Shown: positions 948 through 44,868 of the stretch, piece after piece
Numbering within the stretch: the first letter of the stretch is position 1
Layout of the letters: each line of letters opens with the position of its first letter
Assembly: GCF_055900595.2 (NCBI RefSeq)
Contig: NZ_CM148325.1
DNA: 64,000 nt
Reading direction: 5' to 3' (one strand)
Notes under the pieces: generated by a model
Database searches by the model: none
Told to the model about the DNA's origin: nothing
The model's input: the letters and a program-made list of their open reading frames with translations, nothing else
Translations under genes and position numbers: made by a program

Positions 948-2309
<1,362 letters not shown>

Positions 2310-2448
2310 AACGTGAGGAAATACCTGGATTTTTCCTGGTTATTTTGCCGCAGGTCAGCGTATCGTGAACATCTTTTCCAGTGTTCAGTATGGTGCCTTG
2401 CACGGTAATTATGTCACTGGTTATTAACCAATTTTTCTTGGGGGATAA

Positions 2449-3588
2449 ATGAGCGCGGGAAGCCCAAAATTCACCGTTCGCCGCATTGCGGCTTTGTCAC
2501 TGGTTTCGCTATGGCTGGCAGGCTGTTCTGACACTTCAAATCCACCGGCACCGGTCAGCTCCGTTAATGGCAATGCGTCTGCAAACACCAATTCTGGTAT
2601 GTTGATTACGCCGCCGCCGAAAATGGGGACGACGTCTACAACGCAGCAACCGCAAATTCAGCCGGTACAGCAGCCACAAATTCAATCTGCACAACAACCG
2701 CAAATCCAGCCAGTGCAGCCAGTAGCTCAGCAGCCGGTACAGATGGAAAACGGACGCATCGTCTACAACCGTCAGTATGGGAACATTCCGAAAGGCAGTT
2801 ATAGCGGCAGTACATACACCGTGAAAAAAGGCGACACACTTTTCTATATCGCCTGGATTACTGGCAATGATTTCCGTGACCTTGCTCAGCGCAACAATAT
2901 TCAGGCACCATACGCGCTGAATGTAGGTCAGACCTTACAGGTGGGTAATGCTTCCGGTACGCCAATCACTGGTGGAAATGCCATTACCCAGGCCGATGCA
3001 GCAGAGCAAGGAGTTGTGATCAAGCCTGCACAAAATTCCACCGTTGCTGTTGCGTCGCAACCGACAATTACGTATTCTGAGTCTTCGGGTGAACAGAGTG
3101 CTAACAAAATGTTGCCGAACAACAAGCCAACTGGGACCACGGTCACAGCGCCTGTAACGGTACCAACAGCAAGCACAACCGAGCCGACTGTCAGCAGTAC
3201 ATCAACCAGTGCGCCTATCTCCACCTGGCGCTGGCCGACTGAGGGCAAAGTGATCGAAACCTTTGGTGCTTCTGAGGGGGGTAACAAGGGGATTGATATC
3301 GCAGGCAGCAAAGGACAGGCAATTATCGCGACCGCAGATGGCCGCGTTGTTTATGCCGGTAACGCGCTGCGCGGCTACGGTAATCTGATTATCATCAAAC
3401 ATAATGATGATTACCTGAGTGCCTACGCCCATAACGACACAATGCTGGTCCGGGAACAACAAGAAGTGAAGGCGGGGCAAAAAATAGCGACTATGGGTAG
3501 CACCGGAACCAGTTCAACACGCTTGCATTTTGAAATTCGTTACAAGGGGAAATCCGTAAACCCGCTGCGCTATTTGCCGCAGCGATAA
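2449..3588 (+). CDS. nlpD: murein hydrolase activator lipoprotein NlpD (LysM + M23 peptidase domains)
   Basis: 379 aa, lipobox LAGC, Q/P-rich tandem repeat, C-terminal M23-like region; sits immediately upstream of rpoS. Confidence 0.93.
3050..3085 (+). promoter_or_regulatory. putative major rpoS promoter inside nlpD (-35 TTGCGT 3050-3055, 17 bp spacer, -10 TATTCT 3073-3078)
   Basis: Hexamers seen in sequence ~566 nt upstream of rpoS ATG, matching the known position of the rpoS promoter within nlpD. Confidence 0.55.
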
Positions 3589-12508: not shown

Positions 12509-14587
12509 TTAAACCAATGCCGATTTATCAATCCCCAGTCGTTTCATCCGTGATAGCAGTGTGGTGCGTTTTAGTCCCAGACGTTGCGCCGCGCCTTTCG
12601 GCCCGGCAACCACGCCGTTAGTCTCTTTTAATACACGCACAATTAGCTGATATTCATCTTCGCCCTCCTGAGCGACGACCGTTGCAGTCGGCGGCGTTTT
12701 AGGTTCCGGTAAAGCAATATCAGGCAATGACAGCTGCAGCACGTTGCCACGTGTCAGCAATACCGCGCGCTCAATGACGTTTTCCAGCTCGCGTACGTTA
12801 CCTGGCCACTCCATATTGCTCAACGCGCGCAACGTTTCGGCAGGAATGCTGTCGATATTGCGCCCCAGACGACGGGCAATTTTGAAGGTAAAGGCTTTCG
12901 CCAGCAGCGGAATATCTTCCGGACGCTCGCGTAGTGGCGGCAGGTGGATCGGGAATACGTTCAGGCGATAATAGAGATCGCTACGGAACTCGCGGTCGGC
13001 AACCATTTTTTTCAGATCGCGGTTAGTCGCGGCAATTAAACGCACGTCCGTCTGTATAATTTTATTACTGCCGAGACGTTCAAACTCCTGTTCCTGTAAT
13101 ACACGCAGCAACTTCGGTTGTAACTCCAGCGGCATATCACCCACTTCATCGAGGAACAGGGAGCTTTTATCCGCCAGTTCAAAACGACCGATACGCTGGG
13201 CGCTGGCTCCGGTAAACGCACCACGCTCATGACCAAACAGATCGCTTTCTAACAATCCGGCAGGCATAGCCGCGCAGTTCATTTTTACCATGCGGCGATT
13301 ATTACGCCCACTGAGATTATGGATCGCGCGGGCAATCAGTTCTTTACCGGTGCCAGTTTCACCGAGGATCAGAACTGTACTGTCACTTTGTGCCACCATT
13401 TCAACTTGTTTAAGCACGCTGTACATGGCTTCACTGCGACCAATAATCTCGCCAAATTCACTATCAACATTGTTGAGCTGCTCGGTCAGGGCGAGATTTT
13501 CATCAACCAGTCGTTCTTTCAGACGATGAATTTCCTGATAGGCAAGGGCGTTATCGACAGCGATTGCCACACGTTCGGCAATCTGGCGCAGTAAATTCAG
13601 ATTGGTCGTGGTAAACACTTTCTCTTCGCATTGCGCCAGTTTCAGCACGCCCAGCATGGTGTCGCCAGACATCAGCGGTAACAGGCACAAGGTTTGAATC
13701 TGGTTGCCCCAGGTGTCGAACAACATGCGTTCGTAGGGGGCTAAATTATCTCGCTCGTGGAGATTAATCAGCAGCATCTCTTTGCTTTTAAACACGCGTT
13801 CGGTGAGGGTTCCTGCTTCATCGACTTCGCTCTGTTCGTGAGCGGGATGCTGTTTATCAAGATAGTGAGTGGAGTAGATGTTGAGTTTGTTTTTACGGTG
13901 GCTGCGTAAGACGATGCTGATATCGTCAATGTCGAAATAGTAATGGATTTCTTTGGCGACTTCGCTGACCAGTTCGTCCATATCCAGGCGAGAAAGCACC
14001 GCGTTGGTGATGGCAACCAGGATGCGGAAGTTATCGCGTTCCCGGCATAACAACTCATAGTCGACATTATTGACGACGCGGCTCTGGATTTGTTCGGTGA
14101 CGACAGAAATGATCTGCGTAAAAGTTTGCAGGCGATTGAACTCTTTTTCACTCCACGGGCGATCGTCATAACGAATAAATTCACAGCCACCAAAAATATG
14201 CCCTTCCGCCGCCAGTGGCATCAGGCAATAGTGACCAAATTTGGGGTATAGCCCACCAGCGGCCAGCTGCGGCCAGGTTTCACAAAATTCTTCGTAACTG
14301 CAATGCAGTGTATCAGGGCGCGACAAAATGCTGCGCACCGGACCGTGTGCCAGAACAGTTTCGTCTTCATAATTTATGGGGGTGTCTTTTTCACGCGACG
14401 CGTAATAAGACGCACGTTGAGTCTGCGCTTGCCACAACACAATAGCTGCATTGTCGGCGAGCGCAGAACGCTTTACCAATTGCGAAAGAGCCTCACACAG
14501 CGAGGCCAGATCGGGCTGCTGCAATAGTGTCCGAGTGATGTCGAACAACCCTTGTTGTCCGAGATCACTCATCGGTGTATATGACAT
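12509..14587 (-). CDS. fhlA: formate hydrogenlyase transcriptional activator FhlA (sigma54-dependent)
   Basis: ORF 12509..14623 trimmed to MSYTPMSDLGQ... (692 aa); AAA+ GETGTGKE and GAFTGA motifs; C-terminal HTH. Confidence 0.93.
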   Translation of the reverse strand: MSYTPMSDLGQQGLFDITRTLLQQPDLASLCEALSQLVKRSALADNAAIVLWQAQTQRASYYASREKDTPINYEDETVLAHGPVRSILSRPDTLHCSYEEFCETWPQLAAGGLYPKFGHYCLMPLAAEGHIFGGCEFIRYDDRPWSEKEFNRLQTFTQIISVVTEQIQSRVVNNVDYELLCRERDNFRILVAITNAVLSRLDMDELVSEVAKEIHYYFDIDDISIVLRSHRKNKLNIYSTHYLDKQHPAHEQSEVDEAGTLTERVFKSKEMLLINLHERDNLAPYERMLFDTWGNQIQTLCLLPLMSGDTMLGVLKLAQCEEKVFTTTNLNLLRQIAERVAIAVDNALAYQEIHRLKERLVDENLALTEQLNNVDSEFGEIIGRSEAMYSVLKQVEMVAQSDSTVLILGETGTGKELIARAIHNLSGRNNRRMVKMNCAAMPAGLLESDLFGHERGAFTGASAQRIGRFELADKSSLFLDEVGDMPLELQPKLLRVLQEQEFERLGSNKIIQTDVRLIAATNRDLKKMVADREFRSDLYYRLNVFPIHLPPLRERPEDIPLLAKAFTFKIARRLGRNIDSIPAETLRALSNMEWPGNVRELENVIERAVLLTRGNVLQLSLPDIALPEPKTPPTATVVAQEGEDEYQLIVRVLKETNGVVAGPKGAAQRLGLKRTTLLSRMKRLGIDKSALV

Positions 14588-18307: not shown

Positions 18308-18326
18308 AAGCAATAATTGTGCCAGT
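18308..18326 (-). promoter_or_regulatory. sigma54 (-24/-12) promoter for the hyp operon
   Basis: Minus-strand reading CTGGCACAATTATTGCT = TGGCAC-N5-TTGCT, 5' of hypA. Confidence 0.6.
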
Positions 18327-18350
18327 GTTGATTATCCCTAAAGTGAATAA

Positions 18351-18388
18351 TGTCGATGATGTCGAAATGACACGTCGACACGGCGACG
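18351..18388. promoter_or_regulatory. FhlA upstream activating sequence in hyp-hyc divergent region
   Basis: tgtcgatgatgtcgaaatgacacgtcgacacggcgacg; repeated GTCGA/TGACA half-sites between two sigma54 promoters. Confidence 0.5.
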
Positions 18389-18437
18389 AAATTCATCTTT
18401 AGCTTAAAAATTGCTTTAATAACAATAAATTAAAAGT

Positions 18438-18453
18438 TGGCACAGAAAATGCT
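18438..18453 (+). promoter_or_regulatory. sigma54 (-24/-12) promoter for hycA
   Basis: TGGCACAGAAAATGCT: GG-N10-GC spacing, ~40 nt upstream of hycA ATG. Confidence 0.6.
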
Positions 18454-18489: not shown

Positions 18490-18951
18490 ATGACTATTTG
18501 GGAAATAAGCGAGAAAGCCGATTACATCGCACAGCGGCATCGTCGCCTACAGGACCAGTGGCATCTCTACTGCAATTCGCTGGTTCAGGGGATCACGTTA
18601 TCGAAAGCGCGCCTGCATCACGCCATGAGCTGTGCGCCAGACAAAGAACTCTGTTTCGTCCTTTTTGAACATTTTCGCATTTACGTCACCCTGGCGGATG
18701 GCTTTAACAGCCACACCATCGAGTATTACGTCGAAACGAAAGAGGGTGAAGAAAAACAGCGGATTGCGCAGGCACAATTGAGCATTGACGGAATGATAGA
18801 TGGCAAGGTCAACATCCGCGATCGCGAACAGGTACTGGAACACTATCTCGAAAAAATCGCTGGCGTTTACGACAGCTTATACACCGCCATTGAAAACAAT
18901 GTACCGGTGAATTTAAGCCAACTGGTAAAGGGACAAAGCCCGGCGGCATGA
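18490..18951 (+). CDS. hycA: formate hydrogenlyase regulatory protein HycA
   Basis: 153 aa, first gene of hyc operon. Confidence 0.92.
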   Translation: MTIWEISEKADYIAQRHRRLQDQWHLYCNSLVQGITLSKARLHHAMSCAPDKELCFVLFEHFRIYVTLADGFNSHTIEYYVETKEGEEKQRIAQAQLSIDGMIDGKVNIRDREQVLEHYLEKIAGVYDSLYTAIENNVPVNLSQLVKGQSPAA

Positions 18952-19001: not shown

Positions 19002-19056
19002 TGTCGATGAGTGTCGAAAATGACATTTCATCGGCATGTTTTCGTCAAAAATGACA
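19002..19056. promoter_or_regulatory. second FhlA UAS-like element, hycA-hycB intergenic
   Basis: tgtcgatgagtgtcgaaaatgaca nearly identical to the motif at 18351. Confidence 0.45.
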
Positions 19057-26376: not shown

Positions 26377-27150
26377 TTGAAAATCAGAACAGGGATGTGC
26401 GCTTTTTTATTTTGCTTAGTGCTTCCTGCGCAGGCTACCAGCTTTACCGAATATCTGCCAATGAGTGACAGCGAATACGCGCAAAAGCGGGCGCTGAAAC
26501 CTCTCCTGACTATGCCTTATTATACCGAGCAAACCTGGCATTTTAGAAAAGTGGGCGTTGCTGGCGTGACGCTTGAGAAGATGCCAAATGAAGAGGATTA
26601 CTGGCAATTAACTGCTAAAGACCGCGCCGGTAAATCCTGGAAGGTGCCTGTGGGTATGCTGGCAAATATGGCGGGCAAAGGGCAACTCTATCGCGCCGAT
26701 CTGGATCGTAACGGCATTCAGGATCTGGTTATCTGGTTACCAAGTGCTGGTAATGGTCTGGCTCCTTATGCACATTTAATCCTTATGACGTTCACGCGCG
26801 ATGGTCGTCCCTGTGTCTTTGAACCCTGGGGATTCTACACCGCAAGCAAAACTGGCGTAGATGATTTGCTGGATTTGCAAGGCAATGGCCACACACAATT
26901 GCTGGATATGCAGTTTAATTCTGGTTACTGGATAACCAGTCTGTATCAGGTAAAAGACGCCAAATGGCAACGTGTTCACGGCTGGTTTGGCAAGTTAAGC
27001 TATCCCGCGCTCACGCGTTTCACTTATACCCCCAACCGTAAACTCGTCCTCAAACCCATTGCCGGGCGCGACCCGCAAACGGAAGATCTGGCGTTGACCC
27101 AGCGTTGCTTGATAACAGAGGATATGCTTGATGGGGTGAATCAGCTCTGA
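26377..27150 (+). CDS. hypothetical secreted protein with FG-GAP/VCBS-like DxDxNG motifs (start may be ATG at 26395)
   Basis: 257 aa ORF; signal-peptide-like N-terminus (CAFLFCLVLPAQA); motifs DLDRNGIQDLV and DLQGNGHTQLLD; lies between hycI and a REP pair. Confidence 0.6.
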   Translation: MKIRTGMCAFLFCLVLPAQATSFTEYLPMSDSEYAQKRALKPLLTMPYYTEQTWHFRKVGVAGVTLEKMPNEEDYWQLTAKDRAGKSWKVPVGMLANMAGKGQLYRADLDRNGIQDLVIWLPSAGNGLAPYAHLILMTFTRDGRPCVFEPWGFYTASKTGVDDLLDLQGNGHTQLLDMQFNSGYWITSLYQVKDAKWQRVHGWFGKLSYPALTRFTYTPNRKLVLKPIAGRDPQTEDLALTQRCLITEDMLDGVNQL

Positions 27151-27253: not shown

Positions 27254-29835
<2,582 letters not shown>

Positions 29836-30094: not shown

Positions 30095-31105
30095 ATGACG
30101 ACAATGCTGGAAGTGGCGAAGCGCGCCGGGGTTTCAAAAGCGACCGTTTCCCGCGTGCTTTCAGGTAATGGCTACGTCAGCCAGGAAACTAAAGATCGCG
30201 TGTTTCAGGCGGTGGAAGAGAGCGGCTACCGCCCAAATTTGCTGGCGCGCAATCTGTCAGCGAAGAGTACCCAGACGCTGGGGCTGGTAGTGACCAACAC
30301 GCTTTACCACGGCATTTATTTTAGTGAATTACTGTTTCATACCGCGAGAATGGCGGAAGAGAAAGGGCGTCAGCTGCTATTGGCAGATGGCAAACATAGC
30401 GCCGAAGAAGAACGCCAGGCGATTCAGTATCTACTGGATCTGCGCTGCGACGCCATTATGATTTACCCGCGCTTTTTAAGCGTGGATGAGATTGATGACA
30501 TCATTGATGCACACAATCAGCCGATAATGGTGCTCAATCGCCGCCTGCGCAAAAACAGTAGCCATAGCGTCTGGTGCGATCATAAACAGACCAGCTTTAA
30601 CGCCGTGGCAGAGTTGATAAACGCCGGACATCAGGAGATTGCTTTCCTTACCGGTTCGATGGATTCCCCCACCAGCATTGAACGCCTTGCCGGATATAAA
30701 GACGCGCTGGCGCAGCATGGTATTGCACTCAATGAAAAACTTATCGCTAACGGTAAATGGACGCCTGCCAGCGGGGCCGAAGGGGTAGAAACGTTGCTCG
30801 AACGTGGTGCTAAATTTAGCGCGTTAGTTGCCAGTAACGACGATATGGCGATAGGTGCGATGAAAGCGTTGCATGACCGTGGTGTAGCGGTGCCGGGGCA
30901 AGTATCGGTTATTGGATTTGATGATATCGCAATTGCCCCCTACACCGTTCCGGCGCTCTCCAGCGTAAAAATTCCGGTGACTGAGATGATTCAGGAAATA
31001 ATTGGGCGGCTGATATTTATGCTCGATGGTGGTGCTTACACACCGCCGAAAACCTTCAGCGGAAAACTGATCCGCCGCGACTCCCTCATTGATCTTTCGC
31101 GATAA
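30095..31105 (+). CDS. ascG: LacI-family repressor AscG
   Basis: ORF 30029..31105 trimmed to MTTMLEVAKRAGVSKATVSRVL... (336 aa); divergent from ascF. Confidence 0.92.
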   Translation: MTTMLEVAKRAGVSKATVSRVLSGNGYVSQETKDRVFQAVEESGYRPNLLARNLSAKSTQTLGLVVTNTLYHGIYFSELLFHTARMAEEKGRQLLLADGKHSAEEERQAIQYLLDLRCDAIMIYPRFLSVDEIDDIIDAHNQPIMVLNRRLRKNSSHSVWCDHKQTSFNAVAELINAGHQEIAFLTGSMDSPTSIERLAGYKDALAQHGIALNEKLIANGKWTPASGAEGVETLLERGAKFSALVASNDDMAIGAMKALHDRGVAVPGQVSVIGFDDIAIAPYTVPALSSVKIPVTEMIQEIIGRLIFMLDGGAYTPPKTFSGKLIRRDSLIDLSR

Positions 31106-31109
31106 GCAT

Positions 31110-31148
31110 TGTCATCACATGTCATCGTCACTAGTGTCGATGACATCG
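31110..31148. promoter_or_regulatory. FhlA UAS-like element upstream of hydN-hypF
   Basis: tgtcatcacatgtcatcgtcactagtgtcgatgacatcg shares TGTCGATGA/TGACA half-sites with the hyc sites. Confidence 0.45.
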
Positions 31149-31253
31149 TTTTTTCTGCATTGCAGAATTTAATTTCTTTAAATAACAATCAATTAAAAGT
31201 TGGCATGATTTGTGAATGTATCGGCGCATTAACTGTCATTGCTGGAGAATTTG

Positions 31254-31781
31254 ATGAACCGTTTCATCATTGCTGACGCGAGTAAATGTATTGGTTGTCG
31301 TACCTGTGAAGTGGCGTGCGTGGTTTCTCATCAGGAGAATCAGGACTGTGCATCGCTGACCCCGGAAACTTTTTTACCGCGAATCCATGTCATTAAAGGT
31401 GTGAACATTTCCACGGCGACAGTTTGCCGTCAGTGTGAAGATGCACCGTGCGCTAACGTCTGCCCGAATGGTGCTATCAGCCGTGATAAAGGGTTTGTTC
31501 ATGTCATGCAGGAACGTTGCATTGGTTGCAAAACCTGCGTTGTGGCTTGCCCGTATGGTGCGATGGAAGTGGTAGTGCGTCCGGTGATTCGCAACAGCGG
31601 CGCAGGGCTTAACGTACGCGCTGACAAAGCCGAAGCTAATAAATGCGACCTCTGTAACCATCGTGAAGACGGCCCGGCCTGTATGGCTGCTTGCCCGACC
31701 CATGCGCTGATTTGTGTCGATCGTAATAAACTTGAACAACTGAGCGCAGAAAAACGCCGCCGCACGGCGCTAATGTTCTAA
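31254..31781 (+). CDS. hydN: formate dehydrogenase-H-associated 4Fe-4S ferredoxin HydN
   Basis: ORF trimmed to [22 protein letters not shown]... (175 aa); HycB-like. Confidence 0.92.
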
Positions 31782-31933: not shown

Positions 31934-34186
31934 ATGGCAAAAAACACATCTTGCGGTGTCCAACTGCGTATTCGTGGCAAAGTGCAGGGCGTCGGTTTTC
32001 GTCCCTTTGTCTGGCAACTGGCACAGCAATTAAATCTTCACGGCGATGTCTGTAATGACGGCGATGGCGTAGAAGTCCGGCTGCTGGAAGACCCGAAAAC
32101 GTTTCTTGTTCAATTGCATCAGCACTGCCCGCCGCTGGCGCGTATTGATAGCGTCGAATGTGAGCCGTTTATCTGGATGCAGCCGCCCACTGAGTTCACC
32201 ATCCGCCAGAGCGCGGGCGGCGTCATGAATACGCAAATTGTTCCCGATGCCGCAACTTGCCCTGCCTGTCTTGCCGAAATGAATACCCCAGGCGAACGGC
32301 GTTATCGTTATCCGTTTATCAACTGTACCCATTGCGGCCCGCGTTTCACCATTATTCGCGCGATGCCTTACGACCGTCCATTTACCGTGATGGCGGCGTT
32401 TCCGCTATGTCCGGCCTGCGATAAAGAATATCGCGACCCGCTCGATCGTCGCTTCCACGCCCAGCCGGTGGCCTGCCCGGAGTGTGGCCCACATCTTGAA
32501 TGGCTAAGTCCTGGTGAACATGCGAAACAAGATGCGGCATTACAGGCGGCTATCGCTCAGTTAAAAATGGGCAACATTGTCGCTATCAAAGGGATTGGCG
32601 GATTTCATCTCGCCTGCGATGCGCGTAACAGTAACGCGGTGGCGACACTACGGGCGAGCAAACATCGCCCGGCGAAACCGCTGGCGGTTATGTTGCCAAC
32701 GGCAGAAGGTTTACCCGACGCTGCCCGTCAGTTGCTCACCACGCCCGCCGCGCCGATTGTTCTGGTGGATAAAATATATGTTCCGGAACTTTGTGACGAT
32801 ATCGCCCCTGGCCTTAACGAAGTCGGGGTGATGTTGCCTGCGAATCCGCTCCAGCATTTGCTGTTACAGGAACTGCAATGCCCGCTGGTGATGACCTCCG
32901 GCAACCTGAGCGGTAAACCACCGGCTATCAGCAACGAACAGGCGCTGGAGGATTTGCAGGACATTGCCGACGGATTCTTGATTCATAACCGCGACATCGT
33001 GCAGCGGATGGATGATTCAGTGGTGCGCGAAAGTGGCGAAATGTTGCGCCGCTCGCGGGGGTATGTACCGGATGCGCTGGCTTTGCCTCCGGGCTTTAAA
33101 AATATTCCTCCTGTGCTGTGTCTCGGTGCGGATCTGAAAAATACCTTCTGTCTGGTGCGTGGTGAACAGGCGGTGTTGAGTCAACATTTGGGCGATTTAA
33201 GTGACGATGGCATTCAGATGCAGTGGCGCGAAGCGTTGCGCCTGATGCAAAACATCTACGATTTTACTCCACAGTTTGTGGTGCATGATGCGCATCCGGG
33301 CTATGTCTCCAGCCAGTGGGCGCGTGAGATGAATCTGCCGACGCAAACGGTGCTGCATCACCATGCCCACGCGGCGGCGTGTCTGGCAGAACATCACTGG
33401 CCGCTGGATGGCAGTGATGTCATTGCTTTGACGCTCGACGGTATTGGTATGGGCGAAAACGGCGCTTTATGGGGCGGCGAGTGCTTGCGGGTGAACTATC
33501 GCGAATGCCAGCACCTGGGCGGCTTGCCTGCGGTGGCGCTTCCGGGGGGCGATCTTGCGGCAAAGCAGCCGTGGCGAAACCTGCTGGCGCAGTGCCTGCG
33601 CTTTGTGCCGGAGTGGCAGAATTACCCTGAAACGGTAAGTGTGCAACAGCAAAACTGGAGCGTGCTGGCGCGGGCCATTGAGCGTGGAATTAACGCGCCG
33701 CTGGCGTCATCGTGTGGGCGTTTGTTCGATGCTGTGGCGGCGGCACTGGGCTGTGCGCCAGCCACGTTAAGTTATGAAGGTGAAGCGGCTTGTGCCCTCG
33801 AGGCGCTGGCGGCTTCGTGCCAGGGAGTAACGCATCCGGTGACGATGCCGCTGGTGGACAATCAACTGGATCTCGCCACTTTCTGGCAGCAGTGGCTGAA
33901 CTGGCAGGCACCGGTTAATCAACGCGCGTGGGCATTTCATGATGCGCTGGCGCAGGGTTTTGCCGCGTTGATGCGTGAGCAGGCCACGATGCGTGGTATC
34001 ACTACGCTGGTATTTAGCGGCGGGGTTATTCATAACCGTTTGCTGCGTGCACGTCTGGCGCATTATCTTGCTGACTTTACGTTGCTCTTCCCGCAGAGTT
34101 TACCTGCGGGGGATGGCGGGTTGTCTCTGGGGCAGGGGGTTATTGCTGCGGCCCGTTGGGTGGCGGGTGAAGCCCAGAACGGATAA
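31934..34186 (+). CDS. hypF: carbamoyltransferase HypF (hydrogenase maturation)
   Basis: ORF 31862..34186 trimmed to [27 protein letters not shown]... (750 aa); acylphosphatase, Zn-finger CxxC pairs, YrdC and Kae1-like domains. Confidence 0.93.
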
Positions 34187-43782: not shown

Positions 43783-44868
43783 ATGTTCAAGCGTCGTTAT
43801 GTAACATTGCTTCCCCTTTTTGTGTTGCTTGCCGCCTGTAGCAGCAAGCCAAAATCTACTGAGACTGAAACGACCACCGGAACGCCGTCTGGCGGCTTCC
43901 TGCTTGAGCCGCAGCACAATGTGATGCAGATGGGCGGCGATTTCGCTAACAACCCGAATGCCCAGCAGTTCATCGACAAAATGGTGAACAAACACGGTTT
44001 CAATCGTCAGCAGTTGCAGGAAATTCTCTCCCAGGCGAAACGTCTGGATTCGGTATTGCGGCTGATGGATAACCAGGCACCAACCACATCGGTGAAGCCG
44101 CCATCAGGTCCGAACGGCGCATGGCTGCGTTATCGCAAAAAATTTATTACGCCGGACAACGTGCAAAACGGCGTGGTTTTCTGGAATCAGTATGAAGACG
44201 CGTTGAATCGTGCGTGGCAGGTGTATGGTGTACCGCCGGAAATTATCGTCGGGATTATCGGCGTCGAAACTCGCTGGGGACGCGTGATGGGGAAAACTCG
44301 TATCCTCGATGCGCTGGCAACGTTGTCATTTAACTACCCACGCCGCGCGGAGTATTTCTCTGGTGAGCTGGAAACCTTCTTGCTGATGGCGCGCGACGAG
44401 CAGGACGATCCGCTCAATCTGAAAGGCTCTTTTGCCGGTGCGATGGGCTACGGTCAGTTTATGCCATCGTCTTATAAACAATATGCAGTGGATTTTAGCG
44501 GCGACGGGCATATCAACCTGTGGGATCCGGTTGATGCCATCGGTAGTGTGGCGAACTATTTTAAAGCGCACGGCTGGGTGAAAGGTGATCAGGTTGCGGT
44601 GATGGCAAACGGTCAGGCTCCAGGCTTACCGAATGGCTTCAAAACCAAGTACAGCATTTCACAACTTGCTGCAGCTGGACTAACGCCACAGCAGCCGCTG
44701 GGCAATCATCAGCAGGCCAGCTTACTGCGCCTGGATGTTGGCACCGGTTATCAGTACTGGTACGGTTTGCCGAACTTCTACACTATCACCCGTTACAATC
44801 ACAGCACCCATTACGCAATGGCCGTCTGGCAGTTAGGACAAGCCGTGGCACTGGCGCGCGTGCAGTAA
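43783..44868 (+). CDS. mltB: membrane-bound lytic murein transglycosylase B (lipoprotein)
   Basis: ORF 43678..44868 trimmed to MFKRRYVTLLPLFVLLAACSS... (361 aa), lipobox LAAC. Confidence 0.9.
   Translation: MFKRRYVTLLPLFVLLAACSSKPKSTETETTTGTPSGGFLLEPQHNVMQMGGDFANNPNAQQFIDKMVNKHGFNRQQLQEILSQAKRLDSVLRLMDNQAPTTSVKPPSGPNGAWLRYRKKFITPDNVQNGVVFWNQYEDALNRAWQVYGVPPEIIVGIIGVETRWGRVMGKTRILDALATLSFNYPRRAEYFSGELETFLLMARDEQDDPLNLKGSFAGAMGYGQFMPSSYKQYAVDFSGDGHINLWDPVDAIGSVANYFKAHGWVKGDQVAVMANGQAPGLPNGFKTKYSISQLAAAGLTPQQPLGNHQQASLLRLDVGTGYQYWYGLPNFYTITRYNHSTHYAMAVWQLGQAVALARVQ

Follow-up and report, generated by a model that had tools for sequence, protein, structure and literature searches.

What kind of promoter drives hydN-hypF in Escherichia coli, when the best sigma-54-like element upstream of the operon departs from the consensus? 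The question is raised by a 64,000-nucleotide stretch of E. coli chromosome (contig NZ_CM148325.1; hereafter the window), in which positions 31110-31215 fall within the 148-nt intergenic region between ascG and hydN. The initial annotation had recognised here an upstream activating sequence (UAS) of the FhlA type and a poorly matching -24/-12 element, and had read the latter as either a weak sigma-54 promoter or a different promoter. It had identified genes, UAS and promoter element correctly; of its two readings, the first is borne out by chromatin immunoprecipitation sequencing (ChIP-seq), genomic systematic evolution of ligands by exponential enrichment (gSELEX) and rpoN dependence in Salmonella, while the second found no support, the intergenic sigma-70-like match being at chance level.

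We are highly confident that 31110-31216 is the regulatory region of E. coli hydN-hypF, an operon of the formate regulon, with an FhlA-type UAS and a weak sigma-54 promoter. That the promoter exists, depends on sigma-54 and belongs to the FhlA regulon is already known and has been confirmed again by mapping sigma-54 genome-wide; the promoter, hydNp, was reportedly first described by Maier, Binder and Bock in 1996.

The -24/-12 element of hydN

The element that had been placed at 31200-31214, TGGCATGATTTGTGA, is present, although its actual position is 31201-31215, an offset of one base. TGGCAT at 31201-31206 supplies the GG at -25/-24, and the T of TGG lies 53 nt before the hydN ATG in sense orientation. 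The poor match at -12 was also described correctly: against TGGCACG-N4-TTGCW, the GG and the G of GC are present and A replaces C at -12 (31215). A further departure is G for T at -15 (31212), so that GTG replaces TTG; the 10-bp spacing between GG and GC is correct. To score the element we used a position weight matrix (PWM) built from the 41 intergenic, sense-oriented ChIP-seq motifs of Bonocora et al. (2015), with hydN left out, and scanned both strands of the window (127,968 positions). This scoring, which the initial annotation had proposed, gave 9.8 bits for the hydN element TTGGCATGATTTGTGAA, which is marginal by motif alone, compared to 21.7 bits for hypA, 18.8 for norV and 16.4 for hycA. 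The element ranks 25th in the window (top 0.02% of positions) and, under leave-one-out scoring, 40th of the 42 ChIP-confirmed intergenic sites.

The same scan returned a sigma-54-like motif inside hycA (GTGGCATCTCTACTGCA; 18558-18574, plus strand) with a score of 13.4 bits, which exceeds that of the true site at hydN. The K-12 ChIP-seq sites that a search for hycA turned up in the published mapping (PMC4591121) do not include it; most likely it either has no function or is a match peculiar to the strain.

Published work on K-12 or Salmonella has demonstrated that sigma-54 binds, that expression depends on rpoN and that the operon belongs to the FhlA/formate regulon. In K-12, ChIP-seq site OS26 (CTGGCATGATTTGTGAA; FAT 11; PSSM (position-specific scoring matrix) value 9.175) is flagged C, that is, experimentally confirmed in EcoCyc, with a predicted start 27 nt before hydN (PMC4591121). 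The hydN -24/-12 16-mer in the window is identical to that of OS26, and counting from the -12 position would place transcription start at 31227, the same distance from the gene. gSELEX with a reconstituted RpoN holoenzyme gives a peak in the ascG-hydN spacer (PMC8743547). The orthologous site of Salmonella LT2, TGGCACGATTCGTGTATA, which also lacks the -12 C, was enriched 23-fold by ChIP-chip in wildtype versus ∆rpoN cells, hydN-hypF expression was 13-fold higher in wildtype than in ∆rpoN in the presence of a promiscuous activator, and FhlA is the activator assigned to the site (PMC3844500). A 2025 review likewise places the operon in the formate regulon, with its expression enhanced by formate-FhlA (PMC11841067). 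Sigma-54 occupancy in K-12 was 201 at hypA, 91 at hycA, 41 at fdhF, 16 at hyfA and 11 at hydN (PMC4591121); occupancy at hydN is thus the lowest of the FhlA-regulon promoters, which fits the weak motif. The GA in place of GC at -12 and the G for T at -15 make this a low-occupancy sigma-54 site, not a promoter of another kind.

The K-12 hydNp locus is orthologous to that of the window, with the same flanking genes and the same distance to hydN. The UAS (31110-31148), the TGGCATGATTTGTGAA core and the whole segment from the -24/-12 element to the ATG are base-for-base identical, while the window has T rather than C before TGG and seven single-nucleotide polymorphisms (SNPs) in the spacer. The Salmonella Typhimurium orthologue (STM2843; Samuels et al., 2013) is sigma-54-bound and rpoN-dependent with GTGT in place of a -12 C. 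Its -12 trinucleotide is TGT where the window has TGA; the published LT2 -24 hexamer is TGGCAC, and the sampled S. enterica subspecies representatives have TGGCAT or TGGCAC and carry the same palindromic UAS at -94 with one mismatch. The upstream gene context in Salmonella differs from that of the window. The confirmed sigma-54 promoters pspA and pspG, with TTGTA at -12, resemble hydN in lacking the C; in contrast to hydN, they retain TT in the TTG, their base at -12 is T where hydN has A, and their activator is PspF.

Conservation across genera bears on the same question. We assembled a cross-genus set by scanning GTDB species representatives for HydN, which detected ~270 hydN loci; the set has 80 loci, drawn from over 20 genera of enterobacteria, and, with the window, 81 species. 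All 81 have a -24/-12 element in which TGG is invariant and its T lies 50-55 nt before the hydN ATG. This family-wide positional constancy, together with the 13-fold rpoN dependence in Salmonella and the 'confirmed' status in EcoCyc, leaves little room for a sigma-70-type intergenic promoter driving hydN, with TGGCAT...GTGA a chance or non-productive sigma-54 site. Such a reading could draw on the low PWM score, on the many E. coli sigma-54 ChIP sites that are not known promoters (PMC4591121), and on one candidate, ATGACA-17-CAGAAT at 31140-31168, which matches at 9 of 12 positions. That candidate, however, occurs at chance frequency (1 found versus 1.1 expected in 30900-31400), and its -10 hexamer falls in the polymorphic, non-conserved spacer. 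We give this reading hardly any credence.

The palindromic UAS and its probable activator

The 39-mer tgtcatcacatgtcatcgtcactagtgtcgatgacatcg lies exactly at 31110-31148, as first described. Its core is a 28-nt near-perfect palindrome (31119-31146; ATGTCATCGTCACT/AGTGTCGATGACAT, one mismatch), within which the 26-bp TGTCATCGTCA-CTAG-TGTCGATGACA is the putative FhlA site. The 26-mer pattern occurs once in the window, even at three mismatches (0 expected). A TGTCATC repeat at 31110-31116 is inverted relative to the GATGACA at 31139-31145, so that repeat and palindrome together make three GATGACA/TGTCATC units; a related element, GTC(A/G)(T/W)CA, is found just 5' of the palindrome in other genera at varying offset.

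The half-sites said to be shared with the hyc UAS are real, and the two have the exact 9-mer TGTCGATGA in common. This 9-mer occurs four times on both strands of the 64 kb (0.58 expected; 0 of 100 shuffles reached four): at 18351 in the hypA-hycA intergenic UAS, at 19002 between hycA and hycB, where it adjoins TGTCGAAAATGACA, at 31135 between ascG and hydN, and at 43970 on the minus strand inside a coding region. The first three fall in intergenic regions where FhlA sites are present or would be expected. With one mismatch allowed, the 9-mer was not useful, since its 46 occurrences in the window (14.9 expected) are mostly coding-sequence noise. The hydN UAS is also the densest TGWCR/YGWCA pentamer cluster in the window (five pentamers, never reached in 100 shuffles), and both hyc clusters are among the next three, although the margin is modest, since the runner-up value of four was reached in 28% of shuffles.

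The divergent hycA/hypA sigma-54 promoters (18309-18453; 19002-19056) respond to the same activator and combine TGTCGATGA and TGACA in a UAS ~90 bp upstream, as at hydN. They differ in having canonical TGC at -12 and PWM scores of 16-22 bits, and in the longer spacers of their UAS half-sites (TGTCGAAATGACA), the hydN palindrome being compact and symmetric (TGTCGATGACA). K-12 fdhF is likewise in the FhlA regulon and has inverted pentamers of the CGTCA/TGACG type upstream of a TGGCAT -24 element; it differs from hydN in that its -12 is canonical TGC and that it uses CGTCAAAACTGACG, in which the spacer is 4 nt, and lacks a 26-bp perfect palindrome.

Across the cross-genus set, the palindrome TGTCATCGTCA-N4-TGWCGATGACA was found at two or fewer mismatches in 80 of 81 species, with essentially invariant arms and a central 4 bp that varies freely; an independent pattern search recovered the exact degenerate palindrome once per locus in 72 of 86 loci. 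Its centre lies at -93 to -96 from the predicted start in 50 species and at -83 to -86 in 30, and nowhere else. The two distance classes, about one helical turn apart, are expected if the activator must touch polymerase from a fixed face through a DNA loop.

The exception to the palindrome is Enterobacter sp. Ag1 (locus L056), in which hydN is followed not by hypF but by a 716-aa open reading frame (ORF) of fdhF size (1199-3349). Here the upstream region (470-620) carries a UAS, AAAATGACACCGTCAAAAGTGTCGAA, that resembles the E. coli fdhF sequence CGTCACGTCAAAACTGACGACAG and lacks the 26-bp palindrome, in front of a promoter of the same type (TGGCAC...ATGAA, TGGCACGCTTTATGAA). The replacement suggests that one and the same activator may take its input interchangeably from the palindrome or from sites of the fdhF/hyc type.

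Within E. coli, a 601-nt query around the region matched 5425 of 5426 complete genomes, annotated throughout as lying between ascG and hydN, with 100% identity to strain Z0117EC0005 and ~95% to K-12. Of 5426 records, 4752 carried the identical UAS 40-mer and 4554 the identical promoter 40-mer (31201-31240), the remainder showing 95-99% identity. The spacer 40-mer (31150-31189) was detectable in 1664 of 5426 genomes and identical in only 14 records, so the spacer allele of the window is rare. The UAS 40-mer search returned 5,982 places from the 5,426 records; genomes with two places probably reflect the palindrome matching itself on the opposite strand.

In ~13% of complete E. coli genomes, those in which the match covers <80% of the query, ascFBG is replaced by genes for a HigB-family toxin, a helix-turn-helix antitoxin and a DUF4259 protein (for example EC5654, L003 2523-3770, and FDAARGOS_1260, L004 2512-3759), and the right breakpoint abuts the hydN UAS. 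In these strains homology resumes at CGATAA directly 5' of an intact UAS, and they act as a natural deletion series ending at the UAS boundary.

These strains also bear on whether the palindrome is primarily a rho-independent terminator of ascG (hairpin 31119-31146 plus T6), with its likeness to an FhlA site incidental. The hairpin begins 14 nt past the ascG stop and is followed by CGTTTTTT, it folds as RNA at -18.1 kcal/mol (z = -2.67; 2 of 200 shuffles fold as well), and an ascG-like gene ends just upstream in many other genera. However, the palindrome is unchanged in E. coli strains in which ascG has been replaced and the upstream gene lies on the opposite strand. What is invariant across more than 20 genera is the sequence of the arms and not merely their pairing: the variable arm position 9 (partner 18) changes without compensation, and the window itself has T opposite T. 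Outside Escherichia and Salmonella the T-run is absent (Citrobacter, Klebsiella, Enterobacter and others). The stem in the window is not G+C-rich, and a terminator scan of 30900-31400 did not call the hairpin. We therefore consider it highly unlikely that termination is the primary role, although in Escherichia the palindrome could serve secondarily as a terminator for ascG. As to an RNA element of another kind, a search of 30900-31500 against Rfam at E ≤ 1 gave no RNA family match.

Between the UAS and the -24 element, a predicted integration host factor (IHF) site, TAACAATCAATTA, differs from WATCAANNNNTTR at one position. In the hycA promoter (18410-18442), the block TTTAA(A)TAACAAT(C/A)AATTAAAAGTTGGCA recurs nearly base for base; the whole block TTTAAATAACAATCAATTAAAAGTTGGCA is nearly identical to its hycA counterpart, and TTTAATAACAATnAATTAAAAGTTGGCA, which spans the IHF-like site and the -24, is almost identical between the hycA/hypA region and hydN. 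IHF may bind at TAACAATCAATTA. The spacer also contains a perfect inverted repeat, TTCTGCA-t-TGCAGAA (31153-31167), which appears terminator-like in the scan, is broken by SNPs in K-12 and other strains, and is probably not functional.

Several observations run counter to reading the region as an FhlA UAS with a sigma-54 promoter. The -12 C, the usual hallmark of sigma-54 promoters, is absent, and the hydN score is equalled or exceeded at 24 other places in the window, most of them inside genes, so the PWM alone is not selective. The IHF motif is partially supported: 32 of the 81 species have it, with at most one mismatch, at the offset of -18 relative to TGG. Against the contiguous 16-mer FhlA consensus CATTTCGTACGAAATG, quoted from Leonhartsberger 2000 (PMC4987338), the hydN UAS has 7-8 mismatches, and each of its half-sites, CAT-CGT/ACG-ATG, lacks 2 nt relative to the half-site quoted for FhlA, CATTTCGT. 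As to the first point, 4 of 42 intergenic sense ChIP sites lack the -12 C (pspA, pspG, ygeW and hydN; PMC4591121); since this C is not absolute, sigma-54 membership rests on the binding and rpoN-dependence data rather than on the -12 feature. As to the 16-mer, the accepted UASs miss it likewise (7 mismatches at hyp-hyc, 7 at fdhF and 5 at hycA-hycB), so it cannot discriminate true from false sites, and the best matches to it in a scan of the window were unrelated. The half-site CATTTCGT at one or no mismatch occurs in the window at chance frequency (53 found versus ~49 expected).

The short half-sites, and the absence from the hydN intergenic region of a CATTTCGT half-site at one or no mismatch, would be accounted for if another regulator bound the palindrome (HyfR, which is an FhlA paralogue, or an unrelated dimeric repressor) and FhlA acted elsewhere or from solution. 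Against this, TGTCGATGA stands beside CGAAA(A)TG half-sites in both hyc UASs, and the -94/-84 position with its helical quantisation is as predicted for the site of an enhancer-binding protein. Moreover, an fdhF-like UAS takes the place of the palindrome in the hydN-fdhF-type arrangement, and the literature puts the operon in the FhlA regulon (PMC3844500, PMC11841067, PMC4987338). We regard binding by another regulator as extremely unlikely and, judging from the sequence, FhlA probably contacts this very palindrome. By the same comparison, UAS half-sites 2 bp shorter than the quoted consensus appear to be a minor new observation.

We propose that sigma-54 holoenzyme would wait in a closed complex on TTGGCATGATTTGTGAA (31200-31216), while formate-activated FhlA would oligomerise on the palindrome TGTCATCGTCA-N4-TGTCGATGACA (31120-31145) and the flanking TGTCATC repeat. 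The A+T-rich spacer would be looped, probably with IHF at TAACAATCAATTA, so that FhlA could reach polymerase from the correct helical face. The FhlA ATPase would then drive open complex formation, with transcription from ~31227 through hydN and hypF.

Reciprocal degeneracy at -24 and -12

The departures from consensus are distributed in a reciprocal manner among the 81 species. Where the -24 is canonical (TGGCAY; 52 species), the -12 C is always missing (TGA or TGT); where the -24 is defective (TGGAAC, TGGCTC or TGGCGY; 29 species), the -12 is always canonical TGC. No species among the 81 had both elements canonical or both defective. The half-site PWM scores are anticorrelated across species (r = -0.86), and the total score has a standard deviation of 2.14, compared to 4.69 for shuffled combinations (0 of 5000 permutations). 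Escherichia has the lowest total score, and an A-to-C change at -12 alone would add ~6 bits. This reciprocal degeneracy across genera is a minor new observation.

On a rough neighbour-joining tree of hydN-hypF, the class switches on only two branches, while 9 hexamer and 7 trinucleotide changes keep to the rule. Since there are only two switches, shared ancestry could produce most of the reciprocal pattern, and we downgrade the significance of the permutation result accordingly. The pattern is suggestive of selection for intermediate promoter strength but does not demonstrate it. The stronger proposal, that reciprocal degeneracy keeps the sigma-54 affinity of the hydN promoter deliberately below the optimum throughout the Enterobacteriaceae, we consider possible but rather unlikely.

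Genomic setting and implications

The window carries, in order, fhlA-hypEDCBA (minus strand), hycA-I, a hypothetical gene, ascBF (minus), ascG, hydN, hypF, norWV (minus) and norR. The cognate enhancer-binding protein gene fhlA is intact and lies 17 kb from the hydN promoter, and ascG ends 5 nt before the UAS region begins.

Table 1. Positions of the hydN-hypF regulatory features, neighbouring genes and comparator sites in the window.
Feature	Position	Strand	Basis or remark
ascG, LacI-family repressor	30095..31105	+	RefSeq annotation of matching E. coli records; best NCBIfam matches LacI/GalR-type regulators
Upstream half-site-like repeat TGTCATCACA	31110..31119	+	Third TGTCATC copy, 11 bp before the next
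Core UAS, putative FhlA site, 26-bp palindrome	31120..31145	.	Centre at -94 from predicted start
T6 run	31149..31154	+	3 nt after palindrome; with hairpin, possible ascG intrinsic terminator, Escherichia/Salmonella only
A+T-rich polymorphic spacer, UAS to IHF-like site	31150..31182	.	7 SNPs versus K-12 here or just before -24
IHF-like site	31183..31195	+	1 mismatch; abuts -24 element
Sigma-54 promoter element	31200..31216	+	GG (-25/-24) at 31202-31203; G-A for GC at 31214-31215
Predicted transcription start (+1)	31227	+	Predicted from -12 at 31215; 27-nt leader
hydN Shine-Dalgarno GGAG	31244..31247	+	Sequence; CTGGAG/CCGGAG kept in cross-species set
hydN, 4Fe-4S ferredoxin-like electron transport protein	31254..31781	+	NCBIfam NF007658 HydN equivalog, 383.5 bits (cutoff 260); annotation
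hypF, carbamoyltransferase for [NiFe]-hydrogenase maturation, second operon gene	31934..34186	+	TIGR00143, 1041 bits (cutoff 466); annotation
fhlA, cognate sigma-54 enhancer-binding protein	12509..14587	-	NF011958 FhlA equivalog, 1542.8 bits, full length 1-692
Comparator, hypA-hycA intergenic UAS	18351..18396	.	Shares TGTCGATGA and TGACA
Comparator, hycA-hycB intergenic cluster TGTCGATGAgTGTCGAAAATGACA...TTCGTCAAAAATGACA	19002..19056	.	Among four densest TGWCR/YGWCA clusters in window

Two observations concern neighbouring genes. ascF (28687-29835, minus strand) carries a 309-bp in-frame internal deletion that removes 103 aa of the EIIC domain (~residues 247-349), leaving a 382-aa product compared to 485 aa in K-12 and in Z0117EC0005, to which it is otherwise ~100% identical. 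The ~14-nt overlap at the deletion junction in BLAST suggests a deletion between short direct repeats. Between hycI and ascB, a 257-aa ORF (26377-27150, plus strand) occupies a place where K-12 has no such gene and related strains are annotated with a 'hypothetical protein'.

With a literature on the hydN-hypF promoter reaching back to 1996, the identification matters little as a discovery and serves mainly as calibration: a sigma-54 site that has no C at -12, and that would be missed in this window on PWM score alone, is still genuine, and conservation of position, palindrome arms, helical phasing and within-species invariance finds the site where the motif score fails. The reciprocal degeneracy, the shorter half-sites and a palindrome that may double as the ascG terminator are leads for the study of enhancer-dependent transcription. 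If the proposal of a sub-optimal sigma-54 affinity held by reciprocal degeneracy is true, hydN-hypF, with its two UAS positions, would be a case from nature in which the elements of a sigma-54 core promoter have evolved to compensate for each other.

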